From the IMG/VR virus record IMGVR_UViG_2850778813_000008: a DNA stretch of 13,234 bases, one strand, 5' to 3'. This document shows, piece after piece, positions 1 through 13,234 of this stretch. This stretch comes from a virus (lineage: Duplodnaviria > Heunggongvirae > Uroviricota > Caudoviricetes). Position 1 is the stretch's first letter. Each line of letters begins with the position of its first letter. The notes under the pieces are model-generated. The model searched no databases, was not told where the DNA came from, and worked only from the letters and a program-made list of their open reading frames with translations. The position numbers and the translations under genes are program-made.

Positions 1-846
1 CTACGATAACCGCGCATTCAACATGGCTATCTGTTCGTCGTTCATGTCATCAATCCACATACCGTAAATTTCATACACCATTTGCGCAGTTTCATGCCCC
101 ATCTGGCTGGCTATAAATGCCGGGTTCGCTCCTGCCGTCAACAGCCAGCAGGCAAAAGTATGTCGCGTATGGTACGGATTACGGCGGCGAATACCAGCAC
201 GTTTTACTGCTGCATTCCATCTTGCACCCAAACTGCTTACCGAGTAATAAGGTTTCTGTTTTTCGTTACACACCCTGGGCATGAAAACAAAATGCAGTTT
301 TTGCTTTTCAGTTCTGCCGTACTCCCGATGATAAAAAGTGATTTCGCTTTTGCGATGATGCCCGGTCAGTTTGTATTGCTCCTTCAGTGCTTCAAGAGCC
401 GGCTGCAGTAATGTTACCGTCCGGATCCCGGCATTTGTTTTTGGGGGACCGAACATATCAAGTATCGTCAGGTTTCTTCTGACATTCACAATTCCCTTCT
501 CGAAATCCACATCCTCCCACGCCAGAGCTGCCAGTTCCCCGTGACGAAGCCCGGAGTAAACGGCAAATTTCCACAAGTTTTGGCTCTGTCCTTTTTCACT
601 TTCCATTAATGCATTGAATTCTGTTTTAGATAACGGGTCAGGTTTTATTCTGTTTCGCTGTAATTTTTTTACTCCTTCAAATGGTTTGGTTGATATAAAT
701 CCCGACTGATACGCAAAACGTAACAACGAACAGAGCAGGGCGATATAGTTATCAACTGTGCGCACGATTCTTCCTTTTTTGTTGGATCTTGGATTATCTA
801 GGTAAAGCGTTTCTCCATGCAGCAGTTCATTCCGGTAGTTTAAGAT
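1..846 (-). pseudogene. Phage-type tyrosine recombinase (integrase), 5'-truncated by IS600; C-terminal catalytic domain intact
   Basis: Minus-strand frame open from the IS600 boundary (846) to a stop at 1-3; C-terminal region has tyrosine-recombinase box II signature HTRHTFACWLL...MGHETAQMVYEIYGMW and upstream RHGELAALAWEDVD. Track ORF 1..765 starts at an internal GTG; the frame continues upstream without stops to the IS600 left end, so the N-terminal part is missing. Confidence 0.7.
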
Positions 847-1295: not shown

Positions 1296-1622
1296 ATGAC
1301 TAAAAATACTCGTTTTTCCCCCGAAGTCCGTCAGAGGGCGATTCGTATGGTTCTGGAAAGTCAGGGCGAATATGACTCACAGTGGGCGGCAATTTGTTCC
1401 ATTGCCCCAAAGATTGGCTGTACACCGGAGACTCTGCGTGTCTGGGTACGCCAGCATGAGCGGGATACCGGAGGCGGTGATGGCGGGCTCACCACCGCTG
1501 AACGTCAGCGTCTGAAAGAGCTGGAACGTGAAAATCGTGAACTGCGCCGCAGTAACGATATCCTTCGCCAGGCTTCCGCTTATTTTGCGAAGGCGAAGTT
1601 CGACCGCCTCTGGAAAAAGTGA
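1296..1622 (+). CDS. IS629 OrfA
   Basis: 108-aa [36 protein letters not shown]..., HTH-type IS3-family orfA; ends W-K-K-stop over an A-rich run just before orfB. Confidence 0.8.
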
Positions 1623-2509
1623 TGCCACTGCTGGATAAGCTGCGTAAGCTGTACGGGGTCGGACCGGTATGCAGTGAACTACATATTGCCCCGTCAACGT
1701 ATTACCACTGTCAGCAACAGCGACATCATCCTGATAAACGCAGTGCCCGTGCGCAGCGCGATGACTGGCTGAAGAAAGAGATACTGCGTGTATACGATGG
1801 GAATCATCAGGTATACGGTGTGCGTAAAGTCTGGCGTCAGTTGTTACGGGAAGGTATCAGAGTGGCCAGATGCACTGTGGCACGTCTCATGGCGGTTATG
1901 GGACTTGCCGGTGTTCTCCGGGGTAAAAAGGTCCGTACGACCATCAGCCGGAAAGCCGTTGCCGCAGGCGACCGCGTAAACCGTCAGTTCGTGGCAGAAC
2001 GACCTGACCAGCTGTGGGTGGCTGATTTTACTTACGTCAGCACATGGCAGGGCTTCGTCTATGTGGCGTTCATCATTGATGTGTTTGCCGGATACATCGT
2101 GGGGTGGCGGGTCTCATCGTCCATGGAAACGACATTCGTGCTGGATGCTCTGGAGCAGGCGTTATGGGCCCGTCGACCGTCCGGCACGGTCCATCACAGT
2201 GATAAAGGTTCTCAGTATGTATCGCTGGCCTACACACAGCGGCTTAAGGAAGCCGGATTACTGGCATCAACAGGAAGTACAGGCGACTCGTATGACAACG
2301 CGATGGCGGAGAGCATCAATGGTCTTTACAAAGCGGAGGTAATACACCGTAAGAGCTGGAAAAACCGTGCAGAAGTGGAACTGGCCACACTCACGTGGGT
2401 GGACTGGTATAATAATCGACGATTGCTGGAAAGGCTGGGCCATACTCCTCCGGCAGAAGCAGAAAAAGCTTATTATGCTTCCATCGGAAACGATGATCTG
2501 GCAGCCTGA
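1619..2509 (+). CDS. IS629 OrfB (DDE transposase catalytic domain; normally expressed as OrfAB by -1 frameshift)
   Basis: 296-aa ORF in -1 frame relative to orfA, overlapping its stop; contains DDE-type region (...WVADFTYV..., ...HHSDKGSQY..., ...YDNAMAES...). Confidence 0.85.
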
Positions 2510-2551
2510 GTTCACAGATAAAACACTCTCCAGGAAACCCGGGGCGGTTCA

Positions 2552-3449
<898 letters not shown>

Positions 3450-3596
3450 TGGAGCACCTGTGTTGTTCTGAGGTGAGCATATCACCTCTGTTCAGGTGGC
3501 CAAATTCAGTGTGCCACTTCAGCCCGAAAGGGCGGGGAGCAGTCACACATCTGTTTCCGATAGCCCCGTTCTAATGCTACACTCTTTGATATTTTT

Positions 3597-4283
3597 ATGA
3601 CCCCAATAAACATATTTATGACAGTTGCTGATTTCAAACGGCCCAAATTGGAGCTCCCAAACGGGGCAAACAAACTACTACTGCACTCTTGCTGTGCTCC
3701 ATGTTCCGGTGAGGTGATGGAGGCGCTTCAGGCCTCGGGAATCGACTACACCATCTTTTTCTACAACCCGAACATTCATCCTCAGAAAGAGTATTTAATT
3801 CGTAAGGATGAGAATATTCGCTTTGCTGAACAACACGGCGTGCCGTTTATTGATGCTGATTACGACACAGACAACTGGTTTGAACGAGCCAAAGGAATGG
3901 AATGGGAGCCCGAACGAGGGATCCGTTGCACCATGTGTTTTGACATGCGTTTTGAGCGGACAGCGCTGTACGCCGCTGAAAATGGTTTCAGTGTGATCAG
4001 CAGTTCACTGGGCATTTCACGCTGGAAAAATATGCAGCAGGTTAACGACTGTGGGCGGCGAGCCGTCGCGCATTATCCGGGCATGGTGTACTGGGATTAT
4101 AACTGGCGCAAGCAGGGAGGCTCGTCCCGTATGATTGAAATCAGCAAGCGCGAAAAATTCTATCAGCAGGAATATTGTGGCTGTGTGTATTCTCTGCGCG
4201 ATACCAATCTACACCGCAAATCTCAGGGACGCCCTCTTATCAAAATTGGTCAACTCCACTACGGTAAAGAAGAGAAGGAGTGA
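3597..4283 (+). CDS. QueH-like protein (DUF208 / epoxyqueuosine reductase family), tentative
   Basis: 228-aa ORF with [11 protein letters not shown] motif near N-terminus plus downstream CTMCF and EYCGCVY cysteine motifs, as recalled for the QueH/DUF208 family. Start uncertain (ATG 3597 or 3618); no strong SD at either. Confidence 0.5.
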
Positions 4284-4304
4284 TTTTATGGGGCACCTTT
4301 CTGA

Positions 4305-4334
4305 TTGATTTCATATTGGCGAGGTAAGTAGAAT
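4305..4334 (+). promoter_or_regulatory. Candidate sigma70 promoter for the hok transcript (TTGATT-N18-TAGAAT)
   Basis: TTGATT at 4305-4310 and TAGAAT at 4329-4334; would place transcript start ~4340, just at the 5' fold-back element and ~170 nt upstream of hok. Confidence 0.35.
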
Positions 4335-4338
4335 GACT

Positions 4339-4352
4339 GCGGGTGCTTGAGG
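4339..4352 (+). promoter_or_regulatory. hok mRNA 5' element complementary to the 3' end (fold-back inhibition-type pairing partner)
   Basis: GCGGGTGCTTGAGG (4339-4352) is near-perfectly complementary to CCTCAACGCACCCGC at 4723-4737 (one extra G), ~385 nt apart, flanking the hok ORF. Confidence 0.45.
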
Positions 4353-4510
4353 CTATCTGCTTCAGGCATGAACACTAAAAGGCAGATAGAGAAAAGCCCC
4401 AGTTAACATTACGCGTCCGGCAAGACGCTTAACATTAATCTGAGGCCAATTTCATGCTTTGCACATGTAGGTTAGCCTCTTACATGCCGAAAGGCAAGGA
4501 GAAGCAGGCT

Positions 4511-4666
4511 ATGAAGCAGCAAAAGGCGATGTTAATCGCCCTGATCGTCATCTGTTTAACCGTCATAGTGACGGCACTGGTAACGAGGAAAGACCTCTGT
4601 GAGGTACGAATCCGAACCGGCCAGACGGAGGTCGCTGTCTTCGTAGACTACGAATCCAGGAAGTAA
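4511..4666 (+). CDS. hok: Hok/Gef-family type I toxin (HokD/RelF-like)
   Basis: MKQQKAMLIALIVICLTVIVTALVTRKDLCEVRIRTGQTEVAVFVDYESRK: N-terminal TM helix and conserved LCE..R.G..EVA.F..YE tail; from memory matches E. coli HokD/RelF except the last ~7 residues. AGGAGA SD-like sequence 9 nt upstream. An in-frame upstream ATG at 4454 gives the 70-codon track ORF (mok-like position). Confidence 0.8.
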   Translation: MKQQKAMLIALIVICLTVIVTALVTRKDLCEVRIRTGQTEVAVFVDYESRK

Positions 4667-4722
4667 GAGTGACCGGGCGGGGAGCTGATCCCATCCCCGC
4701 CCACCTCTGATGTGTCAGGCAT

Positions 4723-4737
4723 CCTCAACGCACCCGC
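4723..4737 (+). promoter_or_regulatory. hok mRNA 3' element complementary to 5' element at 4339-4352
   Basis: CCTCAACGCACCCGC pairs with GCGGGTGCTTGAGG; position just upstream of the terminator matches hok-family mRNA architecture. Confidence 0.45.
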
Positions 4738-4743
4738 ACTTAA

Positions 4744-4786
4744 CCCGCCCATCGCTGTGATCTCTCAGCGTTTCGGCGGGTTTTTT
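4744..4786 (+). terminator. Rho-independent terminator-like structure downstream of hok
   Basis: CCCGCC (4744-4749) pairs GGCGGG (4775-4780) with inner CGCTG/CAGCG helix, followed by TTTTTT (4781-4786). Confidence 0.45.
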
Positions 4787-4806
4787 GTTGTTTATTTCCG
4801 GTGAAT

Positions 4807-4834
4807 TTGATTCGCGCACCTTCGCAGATAGAAT
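4807..4834 (+). promoter_or_regulatory. Candidate sigma70 promoter (TTGATT-N16-TAGAAT) upstream of the 4916 operon
   Basis: TTGATT 4807-4812, TAGAAT 4829-4834; same hexamer pair as the candidate at 4305. Confidence 0.3.
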
Positions 4835-4915
4835 CGACTCACTTAAGTAGCGCGCAGGGAGAAGAGGGATGGACCCCGAACAGGGGAGAGCTATTTATCT
4901 GGAAGGATTCTGAAG

Positions 4916-5203
4916 ATGAAAATCGAAGAATTGCGTGAAATTTTTAGTGAAAATGGCCTCTATGCTGTGCGCGTTGAGAATGGAGCGATTGTCAGCCATT
5001 GCCGCATTAGATGTTTGCAATCTCAACAAAGGAAGAGCGGTGCTGTGTTATTTTATTTTTGTAATGGACTTCTGACGGACGGTTTTATTTTGCGTGAGGA
5101 CGAATTTGTCACATCATTACGGGTTTTGAAAGAGATTGGTTTTAAGGCTGGTTTTCTGCTTTTGCTGAAGAATAAACTCATCTACAATCTTGAGCAGGAT
5201 TGA
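4916..5203 (+). CDS. Hypothetical small prophage protein (95 aa)
   Basis: ORF with GAAGA upstream, overlapping the next ORF by 14 nt (translational coupling); occupies the position of rem in Qin-type prophages (positional inference only). Confidence 0.4.
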   Translation: MKIEELREIFSENGLYAVRVENGAIVSHCRIRCLQSQQRKSGAVLFYFCNGLLTDGFILREDEFVTSLRVLKEIGFKAGFLLLLKNKLIYNLEQD

Positions 5204-5840
5204 ACTCCTGCTGTGTAACACCGTGCCACCGGAGAAAGCCGATGGCCATATACAACTGATCAAACAAACCTCTTCCGGATTACTTCTCCCGGCGACGCCG
5301 GAGAGTTGCGATTTTCTGCATCAAATCAAAACAGGTGAGTGGATACACGCAGACTTTAAGCGTGTGCGTAACTACGCATTCCACAAGCGTTTTTTCAAAC
5401 TCCTGCAACTGGGATTCGATTACTGGACTCCGATCGGTGGGGCGATTACGCCTCGCGAACGAGAACTGGTATCAGGCTTCGTTGAGTACCTGTGCGAATC
5501 AGTAGGCCGGGAACATACGCCAGCTCTGAGCGAAGCCGCAGAGCAATATCTGAATACAGTTGCGACACGCAGAACCCGAGATACAGCATTGCTAAAGTCG
5601 TTTGAGGCTTTCCGCGAGTGGGTAACCATTCAGGCCGGATTTTACACCGAGCATATTTATCCGGACGGTAGCCGTGGGCGCAGGGCGAAATCCATCTCGT
5701 TTGCGAATATGGACGAAACCGAGTTTCAGCAGGTTTATAAATCTGTGCTGAATGTACTGTTGAACTGGATCCTGTTCCGTAAATTTTCCTCTCCGGAACA
5801 AGTCGAAAATGTGGCCGCGCAGCTACTGGAGTTTGCGTAA
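5190..5840 (+). CDS. Prophage nin-region protein, possibly DUF1367 family (tentative)
   Basis: 216-aa ORF, stop overlaps next start (TAATG at 5838-5842); family assignment from weak recollection and gene order, not verified. Confidence 0.45.
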   Translation: MSRIELLLCNTVPPEKADGHIQLIKQTSSGLLLPATPESCDFLHQIKTGEWIHADFKRVRNYAFHKRFFKLLQLGFDYWTPIGGAITPRERELVSGFVEYLCESVGREHTPALSEAAEQYLNTVATRRTRDTALLKSFEAFREWVTIQAGFYTEHIYPDGSRGRRAKSISFANMDETEFQQVYKSVLNVLLNWILFRKFSSPEQVENVAAQLLEFA

Positions 5841-6034
5841 TGGTGGATTTACGTAAAGCGGCGCGGGGGCAGATGTGCACCGTCAGAATTCCTGGCTACT
5901 GCAATCACGATCCGGAAACGTCTGTGCTGGCGCATTACCGACTGGCGGGTAAAAACAAGCGATTACACCAAAGAAGAATTACGCCTGATGCATGCAGAAG
6001 GTGTTTTTCGCACGCAAGAAATCTGGAGAAAGGA
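5840..6034 (+). pseudogene. ybcO-like (DUF1364) gene remnant: internal ~100-bp deletion/frameshift, then interrupted near its 3' end by IS600
   Basis: N-terminus MVDLRKAARGQMCTVRIPGYCNHDPETSVLAHYRLAG resembles recalled YbcO N-terminus; after RLAG homology moves to another frame (...EGVFRTQEIWRKEGYL-stop resembles the YbcO C-terminal tail) and that frame's TGA overlaps the Q-like ATG once IS600 is removed. Stop of track ORF 5840..6037 is the TGA of the IS600 left IR. Confidence 0.45.
6032..6034. repeat. Target-site duplication GGA (left) of IS600 copy 2
   Basis: GGA immediately left of IS600 IRL; identical GGA at 7299-7301 right of IRR. Confidence 0.6.
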
Positions 6035-6098: not shown

Positions 6099-6401
6099 AT
6101 GAGCAGAAAAAACCAACGTTACTCTAAAGAGTTCAAAGCCGAAGCTGTCAGAACGGTTCTTGAAAATCAACTTTCGATCAGTGAAGGCGCTTCCCGATTA
6201 TCCCTTCCTGAAGGCACTTTAGGACAATGGGTTACCGCCGCCAGAAAAGGGCTCGGTACTCCTGGTTCCCGCACGGTGGCTGAACTGGAATCTGAAATTC
6301 TGCAACTGCGTAAGGCGTTAAATGAAGCTTGCCTTGAGCGAGATATATTAAAAAAAGCAACCGTGTATTTTGCACAGGAGTCGCTGAAAAATACGCGTTA
6401 A
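6099..6401 (+). CDS. IS600 OrfA
   Basis: 100-aa ORF, near-identical to 911-1213; A-rich slippery run (ATTAAAAAAAG) near 6350-6357. Confidence 0.85.
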   Translation: MSRKNQRYSKEFKAEAVRTVLENQLSISEGASRLSLPEGTLGQWVTAARKGLGTPGSRTVAELESEILQLRKALNEACLERDILKKATVYFAQESLKNTR

Positions 6402-6436
6402 TCGAACAATGGCGACAACAATTTCCCATTGAAGCG

Positions 6437-7255
6437 ATGTGTCAGGTATTTGGTGTATCCAGGAGCGGTTATTACAACTGGGTACAGCATGAACCCTCAG
6501 ACAGAAAACAAAGTGATGAGCGGCTAAAACTGGAGATTAAGGTGGCACATATCCGCACTCGCGAAACATATGGAACCCGGCGGCTCCAGACGGAGCTGGC
6601 AGAGAATGGCATCATCGTTGGTCGTGACCGACTGGCACGTCTTCGTAAGGAGCTAAGGCTACGCTGTAAGCAGAAACGCAAGTTCAGAGCGACTACGAAC
6701 CCGAACCACAATCTGCCAGTTGCGCCAAATCTGCTGAACCAGACGTTCGCTCCTACAGCACCAAATCAGGTCTGGGTGGCGGACCTGACGTATGTTGCCA
6801 CACAGGAGGGATGGTTGTACCTCGCTGGCATCAAAGATGTTTATACGTGCGAAATTGTCGGCTACGCCATGGGAGAGCGCATGACAAAAGAGCTGACAGG
6901 TAAAGCCCTGTTTATGGCGCTCAGGAGCCAGCGCCCACCTGCCGGGCTAATCCACCACTCTGATCGAGGTTCACAGTACTGCGCATACGATTACCGGGTC
7001 ATACAGGAGCAGTCTGGTCTGAAAACATCAATGTCGCGTAAAGGTCACTGTTACGACAACGCTCCGATGGAAAGCTTCTGGGGAACGCTGAAAAATGAGA
7101 GCCTGAGCCACTATCGTTTTAATAACCGGAATGAAGCCATCTCAGTAATACGGGAATACATTGAGATTTTCTACAATCGTCAGCGTCGTCACTCTCGTCT
7201 GGGGAATATCTCCCCGGCAGCCTTCAGGGAAAAATATCATCAGATGGCTGCTTAA
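6437..7255 (+). CDS. IS600 OrfB (DDE transposase domain)
   Basis: 272-aa ORF with ...WVADLTYV..., ...HHSDRGSQY..., ...YDNAPMESF... motifs. Confidence 0.85.
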   Translation: MCQVFGVSRSGYYNWVQHEPSDRKQSDERLKLEIKVAHIRTRETYGTRRLQTELAENGIIVGRDRLARLRKELRLRCKQKRKFRATTNPNHNLPVAPNLLNQTFAPTAPNQVWVADLTYVATQEGWLYLAGIKDVYTCEIVGYAMGERMTKELTGKALFMALRSQRPPAGLIHHSDRGSQYCAYDYRVIQEQSGLKTSMSRKGHCYDNAPMESFWGTLKNESLSHYRFNNRNEAISVIREYIEIFYNRQRRHSRLGNISPAAFREKYHQMAA

Positions 7256-7298
7256 AAAAAGAACAAATGGTAGTGTCCGCTATTGCCAGTACACCTCA

Positions 7299-7301
7299 GG
7301 A
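7299..7301. repeat. Target-site duplication GGA (right) of IS600 copy 2
   Basis: See 6032-6034. Confidence 0.6.
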
Positions 7302-7310
7302 AGGTTATTT

Positions 7311-7865
7311 ATGATTTACCCAACAAATACAGGCAAAAGCGGGGAACACCTTCGTCTCACCACGCTGGAAAGTGTCTGGATTCAGGGAAAACTGCGCATG
7401 TGGGGGCGCTGGTCGTATATTGGCGGCGGTAAGACGGGGAATATGTTCAACCAGTTGTTGGCCTCTAAAAAGCTGACAAAAACGGCAATTAACGAGGCGC
7501 TCCGGAGGATGAAAAAAGCAGGTCTGAACAAGTCTGAACTTGAGGCTTTTTTGCGGGATATGATTAACGGTAAGCAAAAGAGCTGGCTGGCGCATTGTAC
7601 TGATGCAGAGGCGTTATGTATTGATCGGGTCATAAGTGAGGTGCTGGCAGAGCATCCAGGATTGATTAGCGTCCTTCGGCAACGGTATGAGGGGCGGGGG
7701 ATGACCAAACGCAAAATGGCTGAACTGCTGAATGATGCACACCCGAAATGGAGTTTAAGAACCTGTGAAAGACGCATTGAGCATTGGCTAAAGGTGGCAG
7801 AATTTATTTTGTACAAACCAATGGTTATGGCTTTTGGTATAGAGAAAAAAGTTATTGCTTTTTGA
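7311..7865 (+). CDS. Putative late-gene antitermination protein Q-like (184 aa)
   Basis: ORF from ATG 7311 containing LESVW...WGRW, resembling the LE.WG.W motif recalled for Q-family proteins; followed by terminator and tRNA cluster as in lambdoid Q-PR'-tR' regions. Track ORF 7161..7865 starts inside IS600 and is rejected as the native start. Confidence 0.5.
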   Translation: MIYPTNTGKSGEHLRLTTLESVWIQGKLRMWGRWSYIGGGKTGNMFNQLLASKKLTKTAINEALRRMKKAGLNKSELEAFLRDMINGKQKSWLAHCTDAEALCIDRVISEVLAEHPGLISVLRQRYEGRGMTKRKMAELLNDAHPKWSLRTCERRIEHWLKVAEFILYKPMVMAFGIEKKVIAF

Positions 7866-8054: not shown

Positions 8055-8131
8055 GGCCCTTTAGCTCAGTTGGTCAGAGCGAGCGACTCATAATCGCCAG
8101 GTCGCTGGTTCAAGTCCAGCAAGGGCCACCA
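8055..8131 (+). tRNA. tRNA with CAU anticodon, Ile2 (ileX/ileZ-like) by similarity; Met not excluded
   Basis: Hand-folded cloverleaf: acceptor GGCCCTT/AAGGGCC, anticodon loop CTCATAA (CAT at 8089-8091), T-loop TTCAAGT, 3' CCA encoded; resembles recalled E. coli ileX. Confidence 0.75.
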
Positions 8132-8132
8132 A

Positions 8133-8209
8133 CCACCACTAGCTCATCCGGATAGAGCATCAACCTTCTAAGTTGACGGTGCGAGGTTCGAGTCCTCGGT
8201 GGTGGGCCA
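8133..8209 (+). tRNA. tRNA-Arg (UCU)
   Basis: Acceptor CCACCAC/GTGGTGG, anticodon loop CTTCTAA (TCT at 8167-8169), T-loop TTCGAGT, CCA encoded; unusual C1-G72. Confidence 0.7.
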
Positions 8210-8211
8210 GC

Positions 8212-8287
<76 letters not shown>

Positions 8288-8290
8288 TAT

Positions 8291-8351
<61 letters not shown>

Positions 8352-8423
8352 TGAAGTGGCACACTGAATTTGGCCACCTGAACAGAGGTGATATGCTCAC
8401 CTCAGAACAACACAGGTGCTCCA

Positions 8424-9592
<1,169 letters not shown>

Positions 9593-9600
9593 CCACTTCA

Positions 9601-10843
9601 GGGCGTATGCGAACGCTTTCGCCAGTTCTGAGTGTCGCGACAGGGTTTTCATCTTTTCACGCAGCCAGCTTTCCAGGGATTTCAGCAGCGGTTTCGTTTT
9701 CAACTGACGTTCGGCAAGGCGCTGCTCCGCCGTCATTCCCCTTATCTCTGCCTCGATGGCGTACAGTTCGCCGATCCGTTTCAGCGCTTCCTCCGTCAGG
9801 GCTGACGGGGTGCGAACGTGCACATCGTGGATTTTACGGCGGGCGTGAGCCCAACAGGCGGCTTCCGTTATCCGGCCATCCCGGTACAGCTCGTTGAACC
9901 CGGCGTATGCATCCGCCTGCAGTACACCACTGAACCCCGCAAGATGGGTCTGCGGATGGATGCCTTTTCTGTCCGGGCTGTAAGCGAACCACACCGCCGG
10001 CGCCAGCGTTGACCCGGCGTTACGGTCGTCACGAACGTAGGTCCATAACCGCCCGGTCTTCGTTTTCTTATTGCCTGGCAACAGCACCGGGACAGGCGTG
10101 TCATCAGCATGGAGCTTACCGTCAGTCAGCACATAGTCCTGAAGCGCTTCTTCCAGCGGTGACAGTAGCCGGCAGCATGCATCCACCCAGCCCGACAGCA
10201 GTGAACGACTCAGCTCCACGCCCTGGCGGCCGTACATTTCAGACTGGCGGTACAGCGGGGTGTGCTCTGCATACTTTGAGATCAGCACGCGGGCCAGCAG
10301 CCCCGGTCCTGCGATACCCCGCTCGATGGGCCGTGAAGGCGTGGGGGCCTGCACGATGGCATCGCACTGAGTACAGGCATGCTTTTCACGTACAGTCCGG
10401 ATAACCCGGAAGACGCTGCGCATCAACTCCAGCTGTTCGGCGGCATCCTCACCCAGATAGCTCAGTGAGCCTCCACATTCCGGGCAGCATGACGCTGCCG
10501 GCAGCAGCCGTTTTTCATCGCGGGGGAGTGATTCGGGGAACGGTTTGCGGGTGCGGGTTTGACGCAGCGGGCGCTGCACGGCCGGGTCGTCAACCCGACC
10601 GGTAAGGGTATCACTTTCTTTCTGAAGTGCCTTCAGGTCAGCTTCCATCTGTGCGATACGACGGGAGACTTTTTCGGAGCGGCTGCCGAAGTTCATCCGG
10701 CGCAGCTTATCCAGCTGTGCCTGCAGATGGTCTATTTCGCGTTCACGCTCGTTCAGCTTTTCCAGCAGGGCACGGTTCAGCGCCTCCTGTTCGGCAAGGA
10801 GACGTTTCAGTGCATTGATATCGTCAGGAAGTGAGCTGCTCAT
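9601..10843 (-). pseudogene. IS66-family transposase TnpC, C-terminally truncated by IS911
   Basis: 414 native codons with CxxC...CxxC zinc-finger-like region (CCPECG...CTQCD) and DDE-type core; last native residues ...[11 protein letters not shown], then the frame runs into IS911 (track ORF 9527..10843). Confidence 0.75.
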
Positions 10844-10891
10844 ACCGGGTATATTACCAGGCTCATTCAGCGTCGACCAGGATAAAGAGGC

Positions 10892-11239
10892 TTACAACAT
10901 AGTCAGGGACGTAAGCAGTCTTTTAGGCTGCCGCCAGTCGATACCTTCAAGGAGCATCGCCAGCTGTGCCGGTGTGAGGAACACTTTGCCATCCCGGGCT
11001 GACGGCCAGGCGAAGCGGCCGCGCTCCAGCCGTTTGGTCAGCAGACACAGTCCATCGCCGGTAGACCAGAGGAGCTTTACCTGACTGCCATTACGCCCAC
11101 GGAAGATAAAAACGTGACCTGACATCGGATCGTCTTTCAGCGTCGTCTGCACCTTTGCCGCCAGGCCGTTGAAGCCATTTCTCATATCGGTGATACCGGC
11201 AACCAGCCAAATTTTGGTCCCGGAAGGTAACGGGATCAT
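10892..11239 (-). CDS. IS66-family TnpB (Orf2)
   Basis: 115-aa [29 protein letters not shown]... typical of IS66 orf2; start overlaps tnpA stop. Confidence 0.75.
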   Translation of the reverse strand: MIPLPSGTKIWLVAGITDMRNGFNGLAAKVQTTLKDDPMSGHVFIFRGRNGSQVKLLWSTGDGLCLLTKRLERGRFAWPSARDGKVFLTPAQLAMLLEGIDWRQPKRLLTSLTML

Positions 11240-11637
11240 CGCTTCAGTTCCTGTATCAGCAGAGTCAGGAGCTTTTCGCTGACATTGCCATTGAAGCGGA
11301 GCGTCCCGTGCCGGAACGTTACCTCACAGCTGATACTGAGGGTTTCCGGATCCTCTGCGAGCGATTCTGGCTGTTCGGCAGCTGCATCGAGAGTCACAGG
11401 AAGTAGCTGGGGGCTCTCTGAAGAAGGTAATAGCAGCTTTCCCTCGCGCCATTGTTGTCGCCATTTGAACAACAGATTGGCGTTAATGCCATTTTCAAGA
11501 GCAAGTTTTGAGATGGATATCCCGGGTTCACAGGAGGCAGCAACGAGCTGCTGTTTAAATTCGGGAGGATAATTAGGGCAGCCTTTTCGCCTGCCGGGAT
11601 TCACATTTTTCTGCATATCTGACACTTTGGTTCCCAC
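11236..11637 (-). CDS. IS66-family TnpA (Orf1)
   Basis: 133-aa ORF immediately upstream of and overlapping tnpB, HTH-like N-terminus. Confidence 0.7.
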
Positions 11638-12304: not shown

Positions 12305-13234
12305 TGAACCGCCCCGGGTTTCCTGGAGAGTGTTTTATCTGTGAACTCAGGCTGCCAGATCATCGTTTCCGATGGAAGCATAATAAGCTTTTTCTGCTTC
12401 TGCCGGAGGAGTATGGCCCAGCCTTTCCAGCAATCGTCGATTGTTATACCAGTCCACCCACGTGAGTGTGGCCAGTTCCACTTCTGCACGGTTTTTCCAG
12501 CTCTTACGGTGTATTACCTCCGCTTTGTAAAGACCATTGATGCTCTCCGCCATCGCGTTGTCATACGAGTCGCCTGTACTTCCTGTTGATGCCAGTAATC
12601 CGGCTTCCTTAAGCCGCTGTGTGTAGGCCAGCGATACATACTGAGAACCTTTATCACTGTGATGGACCGTGCCGGACGGTCGACGGGCCCATAACGCCTG
12701 CTCCAGAGCATCCAGCACGAATGTCGTTTCCATGGACGATGAGACCCGCCACCCCACGATGTATCCGGCAAACACATCAATGATGAACGCCACATAGACG
12801 AAGCCCTGCCATGTGCTGACGTAAGTAAAATCAGCCACCCACAGCTGGTCAGGTCGTTCTGCCACGAACTGACGGTTTACGCGGTCGCCTGCGGCAACGG
12901 CTTTCCGGCTGATGGTCGTACGGACCTTTTTACCCCGGAGAACACCGGCAAGTCCCATAACCGCCATGAGACGTGCCACAGTGCATCTGGCCACTCTGAT
13001 GCCTTCCCGTAACAACTGACGCCAGACTTTACGCACACCGTATACCTTGTGATTTTCATCGTATACGCGCTGTATCTCTTTCTTCAGCCAGTCATCGCGC
13101 TGCGCACGGGCACTGCGTTTATCCGGATGATGTCGCTGTTGCTGACAGTGGTAATACGTTGACGGGGCAATATGCAGTTCGCTGCATAGCGGTCCGACCC
13201 CGTACTGCTCACGCAGCTTATCCAGCAGTGGCAT
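12305..13234 (-). mobile_element. IS629-like element, inverted, running off the window end
   Basis: Right end TGAACCGCCCCGGGTTTCCTGGAGAGTG... at 12305; orfB on minus strand to 13234. Protein differs from copy 1 at several positions (REQ vs RKL, PLC vs PVC, IQRVYDENHK vs [10 protein letters not shown]). Confidence 0.85.
12347..13234 (-). CDS. IS629 OrfB (DDE transposase domain), copy 2
   Basis: 295-aa ORF, ATG at the last three bases of the window (minus strand); orfA lies beyond the window. Confidence 0.8.
   Translation of the reverse strand: MPLLDKLREQYGVGPLCSELHIAPSTYYHCQQQRHHPDKRSARAQRDDWLKKEIQRVYDENHKVYGVRKVWRQLLREGIRVARCTVARLMAVMGLAGVLRGKKVRTTISRKAVAAGDRVNRQFVAERPDQLWVADFTYVSTWQGFVYVAFIIDVFAGYIVGWRVSSSMETTFVLDALEQALWARRPSGTVHHSDKGSQYVSLAYTQRLKEAGLLASTGSTGDSYDNAMAESINGLYKAEVIHRKSWKNRAEVELATLTWVDWYNNRRLLERLGHTPPAEAEKAYYASIGNDDLAA

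Follow-up and report, generated by a model that had tools for sequence, protein, structure and literature searches.

Several described systems are close to the locus reported here. First, the hok/mok/sok (parB) locus of plasmid R1 carries, in this order, a promoter, tac, ucb, the SD of mok, mok overlapping hok, and dcb; it also has an antisense Sok RNA with its promoter over the dcb region, a 3′ hairpin, fbi and a terminator. Second, the chromosome of Escherichia coli K-12 contains hokC/mokC/sokC (gef), where IS186, 20 nt downstream, removes fbi (PMC3562002), and relBE-hokD (relF), which lies in the Qin prophage. Third, hokD loci are present in the lambdoid prophages of other E. coli, for example IHE3034 (ECOK1_RS11080), and mok/hok are found in phages Rac and Rac-SA53. 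More generally, hok genes show an enrichment in prophages, and 42 of 45 diverse Hok peptides tested were toxic (bioRxiv 10.1101/2025.08.07.668861). According to those passages of the same preprint that refer to Pedersen & Gerdes 1999, the chromosomal loci hokA (E. coli C), hokB (K-12) and hokC (ECOR24) showed neither post-segregational killing nor activation by rifampicin. Thus, an intact sequence is no guarantee of R1-like activity.

The window, i.e. the whole stretch of 13,234 nt that was analysed, contains at positions 4284-4800 what is very probably a complete and canonical type I toxin-antitoxin cassette, hok/mok/Sok with a toxin of the HokD type. The cassette lies in a cryptic lambdoid prophage, riddled with IS elements, of a Shigella-like genome, where it belongs to the nin region. 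All the R1 elements listed above are recognised here in the same order, and the alternative pairings, in this case predicted, are common to both. The R1 locus differs in that it resides on a plasmid, whereas the window locus belongs to a chromosomal prophage and its toxin is of the HokD type. The cassette is an ordinary, known kind of element, and its hokD annotation is already public: at least 1000 contigs have the same protein sequence under the name HokD (Shigella sonnei / Enterobacteriaceae). An earlier note on this stretch had described a hok-type locus with fold-back (tac/fbi) geometry, a Hok-like ORF between a promoter and a terminator, a HokD-like toxin with a differing C-terminal tail, and a QueH-like gene in place of relE upstream; on these points our analysis agrees with it. 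The note had also found no clear sok and considered that the locus might be a decayed chromosomal hok, and in both respects the evidence below points the other way.

The toxin gene hok occupies 4511-4666 on the plus strand, behind an SD (AAGGAG, 4496-4501), and encodes a protein of 51 aa, MKQQKAMLIALIVICLTVIVTALVTRKDLCEVRIRTGQTEVAVFVDYESRK. The protein matches the Pfam profile HOK_GEF (PF01848) with 81.1 bits (cut-off 22) over profile positions 1-42 of 42, and in near-identical genomes the gene bears the PGAP name hokD. It is 90% identical to HokD-type relatives, the toxin of K-12 relBE-hokD included, with all mismatches confined to the last 7 residues, where the E. coli prophage proteins end in TAYEPEE and the window protein in VDYESRK. 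In the NCBIfam search, the Hok subfamily HMM NF007279 scores 55 (cut-off 73) and no HokD-specific HMM matches the 51-aa protein. This speaks against the placement in the HokD subgroup, which is only probable, although the sub-cut-off scores were treated as uninformative because Pfam, Rfam and the 90% identity to HokD agree. At the nucleotide level, the tail differs in hok codons 44-50 (4639-4659), with ACA GCT replaced by GTA GAC and CCT GAG GAG by TCC AGG AAG. These substitutions lie on either side of the invariant UACGAA at the Tyr codon. TadA-dependent A-to-I editing, changing Tyr to Cys, has been reported for hokB and likewise for hokC, hokD and hokE (bioRxiv 10.1101/2025.08.07.668861). 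The GUA change also gives a perfect 8 bp between 4639-4646 and the hok start region (4509-4516), two segments that are paired in the closed full-length fold.

A second reading frame, mok (4454-4666, plus strand), was recognised from the ORF list and from the K-12 mokC/hokC geometry. It has 70 codons and its own ribosome-binding site (GAGG, 4442-4445), is in frame with hok and shares its stop codon. The arrangement is identical to that annotated in K-12, where mokC is an in-frame N-terminal extension and ends together with hokC at one stop codon. The mok ATG is aligned in 21 of 24 related loci; the remaining three (L017, L040 and L047) differ or are mis-registered there. Both the 24-locus alignment and the Pfam match indicate that the hok coding frame and its invariant residues are retained.

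On the minus strand, a Sok gene, the very element that had appeared to be missing, can be located by homology to the annotated sokC of K-12; it extends from about 4462 to 4386. The 5′ end of SokC aligns opposite G4462; Sok would accordingly be expected to start near G4462 and to end near 4386, giving a predicted antisense RNA of about 77 nt (4386-4462). This predicted RNA folds at -30.2 kcal/mol into the same architecture as SokC, with a single-stranded 5′ tail of 9 nt and a long terminator hairpin, and closes with CUUUUCUCU. The SD and start of mok lie within the region to which it is complementary. The Sok RNA of plasmid R1 is about 64 nt long and SokC is annotated at 59 nt. The leader hairpin of the window locus is 18-20 nt longer than that of R1, hence the length of about 77 nt predicted for its Sok.

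The Sok promoter was located at 4469-4497 (minus strand) by alignment to the region upstream of K-12 sokC, and consists of a -35 TTGCCT (4497-4492), a 17-nt spacer and a -10 TAACCT (4474-4469). Although this -10 shares no more than 3 of 6 positions with TATAAT, it conforms to TANNNT, the functional -10 core noted for the R1 locus. The low match to TATAAT explains why the promoter fell below the threshold of our consensus scan of 4150-4950, and is probably also the reason why it was overlooked previously. The promoter is conserved (-35 TTGCC or TTGAC, spacer, -10 mostly TAAyCT) across 23 related loci belonging to Escherichia, Shigella, Kluyvera, Photorhabdus, Pantoea, Citrobacter and other genera, as are the Sok terminator and tail, while the 5′ segment differs from locus to locus. 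Such variability is what would be expected if the 5′ segment determined specificity.

The sense transcript has its own signals. A consensus scan identified a promoter-like site for the hok/mok mRNA at 4305-4334 (plus strand; -35 TTGATT at 4305-4310, 18-nt spacer, -10 TAGAAT at 4329-4334), which aligns with TATAAT upstream of the K-12 hokC leader, and transcription would start at about 4339-4342. Two sites were called in the scan of 4150-4950, against 0.7 ± 0.9 expected; this is the only one upstream of hok, the second (4807-4834) lying past the hok terminator. The second site has the same hexamers with a shorter spacer (TTGATT-16 nt-TAGAAT) and precedes a 95-aa ORF (4916-5203). This ORF has no Pfam or NCBIfam match, and sits where K-12 Qin and Rac-type phages have rem.

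The intrinsic terminator of the hok mRNA was found at 4742-4786 (plus strand) by folding and by comparison with other hokD loci. Its 8-bp stem pairs AACCCGCC (4742-4749) with GGCGGGUU (4775-4782) at -22.8 kcal/mol, encloses an inner hairpin of 5 bp (4753-4770) and is followed by U6. It escaped a simple terminator scan, whose loop limit of 8 nt is exceeded by the 25-nt loop with its inner hairpin; this miss and that of the Sok promoter are threshold effects and no evidence of absence. Related hokD loci have a plain terminator instead (AACCCGC-TTCG-GCGGGTT), and the inner 5-bp hairpin of the window allele arises from about 20 nt inserted into the terminator loop (4750-4774). Between hok and the terminator there is a 9-bp G+C hairpin (4675-4702, plus strand; -20.9 kcal/mol), conserved with compensatory changes (RNAalifold columns 348-374). 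By analogy with R1 (PMC9841398), it is presumed to protect the 3′ end of the processed mRNA. Its loop in the window allele carries a 7-nt insertion relative to other hokD loci; 3′ processing is governed by the stretch of the mRNA in which both insertions fall.

The leader of the hok mRNA (4341-4516, plus strand) matches Rfam RF01794 ("sok") over the full length of the model (positions 1-157) with 116 bits (gathering score 59, E = 2e-26). In spite of its name, RF01794 is a model of the hok leader containing the segment complementary to Sok: in K-12 it matches the sense strand of hokC and hokB, opposite the annotated sokC and sokB. The match to K-12 hokC reaches 118 bits, and the two loci have in common the in-frame mok, the position of Sok and its terminator tail, GGGGCUUUUCUCUAU. 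The K-12 hokC locus differs in the loss of fbi mentioned above, whereas fbi is intact in the window.

Within and beyond this leader, the elements that would govern translation are predicted from the folds and from the alignment. The tac element, GCGGGUGCUUGAGG (4339-4352, plus strand), has three alternative partners: fbi, ucb and a downstream segment in a metastable hairpin. The first partner, fbi, is CCUCAACGCACCCGC (4723-4737, plus strand), and the duplex comprises 14 bp and one bulged C (-25.1 kcal/mol), in accordance with the near-complementarity previously pointed out between these two segments. Folding of 4335-4790 gives a minimum-free-energy structure of -194.9 kcal/mol (z = -7.6 versus shuffles) that includes tac/fbi. 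The ucb or anti-SD box, AAAAGCCCC (4392-4400, plus strand), was recognised from folds, from the Rfam consensus structure and by RNAalifold. Its partner is the mok SD region when the full-length mRNA is folded (helices 4396-4398/4444-4446 and 4400-4402/4440-4442), and tac in the truncated form (stem of -24.5 kcal/mol). The third partner of tac, 4359-4369 (plus strand), comes from a local fold and from the concept of a metastable 5′ hairpin of the nascent transcript (PMC9841398); it pairs with 4343-4353 in a hairpin of 11 bp and -16.9 kcal/mol. Finally, a Sok-target hairpin of the processed mRNA is predicted at 4442-4479 (plus strand) by a local fold (-13.6 kcal/mol), by the constrained fold of the truncated mRNA and by the Rfam structure. 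In it, the mok SD GAGG (4442-4445) pairs with dcb (about 4469-4479), and the 5′ end of Sok finds its complement in the loop (4457-4463) and in the neighbouring 5′ arm of the stem.

RNAalifold, applied to 24 aligned full-length mRNAs, recovers the helix between ucb and the mok SD (columns 62-72 with 101-113), where G-C pairs are exchanged for A-U, a long-range helix between CUCUUAC (4477-4483) and GUAAGAG (4663-4669), and the 3′ G+C hairpin. Local and constrained folds together yield every conformer of the published R1 model (PMC9841398), as predictions only. The unconstrained fold of the truncated mRNA contains the metastable 5′ hairpin instead of the tac/ucb stem, and forcing tac/ucb costs about 4 kcal/mol (-140.5 versus -144.3). 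With so small a gap, thermodynamic prediction cannot choose between the two conformers of the truncated mRNA.

By homology with R1 hok/sok, the locus may work as follows, the transcript ends, the 3′ processing, the expression of Sok, the toxicity and the biological role all being suggested by that analogy. A full-length hok mRNA of about 450 nt would start near 4341 and end at the terminator (4742-4786). During transcription, tac would be kept in the metastable hairpin with 4359-4369. In the finished transcript, tac would pair with fbi, and ucb would mask the mok ribosome-binding site; as a consequence, the mRNA is proposed to be neither translated nor bound by Sok. Slow trimming of the 3′ end, up to the hairpin at 4675-4702, would then take off fbi, whereupon tac would move to ucb, and the mok SD and dcb would form the Sok-target hairpin. 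Two outcomes may follow. Either Sok would bind the processed mRNA and the duplex would be cleaved by RNase III and degraded or, if the unstable Sok has decayed, mok would be translated and, by coupling, hok as well, producing the membrane toxin.

It is possible, although we consider it doubtful, that the cassette is intact and nevertheless functionally quiet: transcribed and regulated by Sok, but causing no killing when Sok is lost and not stabilising the element that carries it, i.e. a drifting passenger of a decaying prophage. The behaviour of the chromosomal hokA, hokB and hokC, as far as the passages cited above go (no post-segregational killing, no rifampicin activation), is consistent with this possibility, as is the heavy degradation of the surrounding prophage by IS elements, and the insertions in the 3′ hairpin and the terminator loop could change 3′ processing. 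However, all the regulatory elements are intact, structural constraint is visible as compensatory changes, and the hok frame and its invariant residues are retained; moreover, the great majority of diverse Hok peptides were toxic elsewhere (42/45).

The opposite extreme, a decayed hok remnant with no working antitoxin or regulation, is very improbable for the complete cassette described here. Apart from the Sok promoter and a terminator lying under the thresholds of simple consensus scans, little speaks for it. The leader matches the Rfam model in full length, mok is intact, and Sok is mapped by homology with its promoter and terminator conserved. What a genuinely truncated locus looks like is illustrated by K-12 hokD, which has no leader and whose region gives no match to RF01794. 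There, the alignment with the window begins about 16 nt upstream of the hok ATG and runs through fbi and the terminator stem, so that fbi and the downstream region are homologous in the two loci. The K-12 locus is without promoter, tac, ucb, mok start and Sok, and the 3′ end of relE lies in their place.

The gene upstream of hok is thus relE in K-12 Qin, while in the window it is a QueH gene (3597-4283; Pfam PF02677, 220 bits), directly upstream of hok. No relBE is present at the window locus, as the earlier note had stated; the absence was correctly seen, and it is no anomaly, because the K-12 relBE-hokD is the truncated copy and QueH-hokD is common in lambdoid prophages. Judging from the alignment, the relBE-hokD arrangement of K-12 is the derived, truncated form, and the window carries the complete cassette.

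The long-range 5′/3′ pairing can be judged best from its evolution. The tac core, GGGUGCUUGAGG, is nearly invariant in 24 loci, and the RNAalifold consensus includes the tac/fbi helix with compensatory changes. In per-sequence duplexes of the 24 loci, tac column 10 pairs as U-A in 12, C-G in 10 and U-G in 2; the pairs at column 18 are G-C (14), A-U (9) and G-U (1); columns 16 and 17 show swaps in single lineages. That the complementarity is a chance match between G+C-rich untranslated regions has a negligible probability: 16 of 2000 dinucleotide shuffles of the 3′ UTR equal the -30.9 kcal/mol observed with the 5′ 26 nt, but the positions of tac and fbi are conserved across genera, fbi is the best non-self partner of the 5′ element on either strand of the whole 13-kb window, and the compensatory changes at two well-populated and two single-lineage positions effectively refute chance. 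The covariation is a stronger argument for tac/fbi than the shuffle statistic, which is itself only moderate. A clade-swap control contributes little over the pair counts: U-type tac binds C-clade 3′ ends about equally well via G-U pairs, and the reverse swap alone is weaker. As the +1 was placed by inference, the first one or two positions of tac (4339-4340) may lie upstream of the transcript.

The prophage hokD loci of E. coli are 90-92% identical to the window over the promoter, leader, mok/hok and fbi. They share their neighbours with the window locus: QueH on the upstream side and, downstream, a rem-like gene, DUF1367 or DUF968, a Q-like antiterminator and tRNAs. The annotation of two E. 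coli prophages, those of FDAARGOS_943 and IHE3034, was inspected, and in each of them QueH is followed by hokD, a small ORF, DUF1367 or DUF968, the Q-like antiterminator and tRNAs; mok, hok and rem are annotated at the corresponding place in related phages. In the window, the DUF1367 gene (5190-5840) is the gene after next downstream of hok. The gene order of the two inspected prophages is that of a lambdoid nin region.

The prophage itself is badly degraded. Of the phage integrase a fragment is present (1-765, minus strand), and IS3-family copies, four to five in number, share the window with an IS66 element and a tRNA cluster. IS3-family elements are found at 1296-2509 (+), 2512-3485 (-, transposase shortened), 6099-7255 (+), 8388-9592 (+) and 12347-13234 (-), and an IS66-family element at about 9527-11637 (-); two of the elements contain an ALIL frameshift pseudoknot (1577-1693 and 13163-13234). 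Missing from the window is the region for replication and immunity that precedes QueH in the two inspected E. coli prophages. A DUF1364 (ybcO-like) gene, located between DUF1367 and DUF1133 in an intact relative, is cut to a fragment of about 96 bp (5939-6034), and an IS3-family insertion separates this fragment from the DUF1133/Q-like gene (7161-7865). In the tRNA cluster (8055-8354), ARAGORN calls tRNA-Met(CAT), tRNA-Arg(TCT) and tRNA-Thr(TGT); the Met(CAT) gene is annotated as Ile by PGAP in a related genome. A fourth tRNA is matched by Rfam but not by ARAGORN, and only weakly and in part (8300-8354, model positions 10-63). As related genomes continue with a tRNA-Gly here, this fourth gene has probably been cut short by the IS beginning near 8388. 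QueH, an epoxyqueuosine reductase, is directly upstream of hokD in FDAARGOS_943 and IHE3034 too, and a tRNA-modification gene carried as prophage cargo near a prophage tRNA cluster may merit separate attention.

In the current dataset, a similar locus is present in 4713 of 5426 complete E. coli genomes, and is annotated as hokD in all the matches listed. Most of these matches are 90-95% identical to the window, and only 2 of the 5426 genomes have one with at least 99% identity. The window allele is present in Shigella: the exact protein occurs in Shigella flexneri, and a Shigella flexneri locus (L007) is 99% identical over window positions 3522-5610. The genomes of Shigella flexneri SFBU1023 and "E. 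coli" ECMA0423 (loci L006, L007, L009, L010, L012 and L014) carry at least three hokD-type copies with differing Sok 5′ segments; one of them, L010, has no tac-containing leader, as in K-12. At 4.44 Mb, the ECMA0423 genome resembles Shigella both in its size and in what it contains.

The allele differs from the common hokD loci in four respects: the sequence by which Sok and its target recognise each other, i.e. a different Sok 5′ segment, the C-terminal tail of Hok, the enlarged 3′ hairpin and the enlarged terminator loop. Theoretically, this Shigella-associated allele could represent a hok/Sok paralog with a function of its own and no cross-reaction with the others. Altered kinetics of 3′ processing might then allow it to serve, for example, as an addiction module that keeps the prophage remnant or as an abortive-infection defence, next to the two other hokD-type copies of that Shigella genome (L012 and L014). 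We regard this as unlikely. This copy of hok/Sok may serve in prophage addiction or in phage defence, or it may have no role.

Past its correct annotation, the locus is of little importance in itself. It displays a complete hokD-type cassette, with mok, Sok, tac, ucb, dcb and fbi. Genome annotations give the hok coding sequence alone, without mok and Sok, and the coordinates reported here could be transferred to many prophages of E. coli and Shigella. If it is true that the differences in the Sok segment block cross-talk among the hokD copies, this would be of modest interest for how specific type I toxin-antitoxin systems are.
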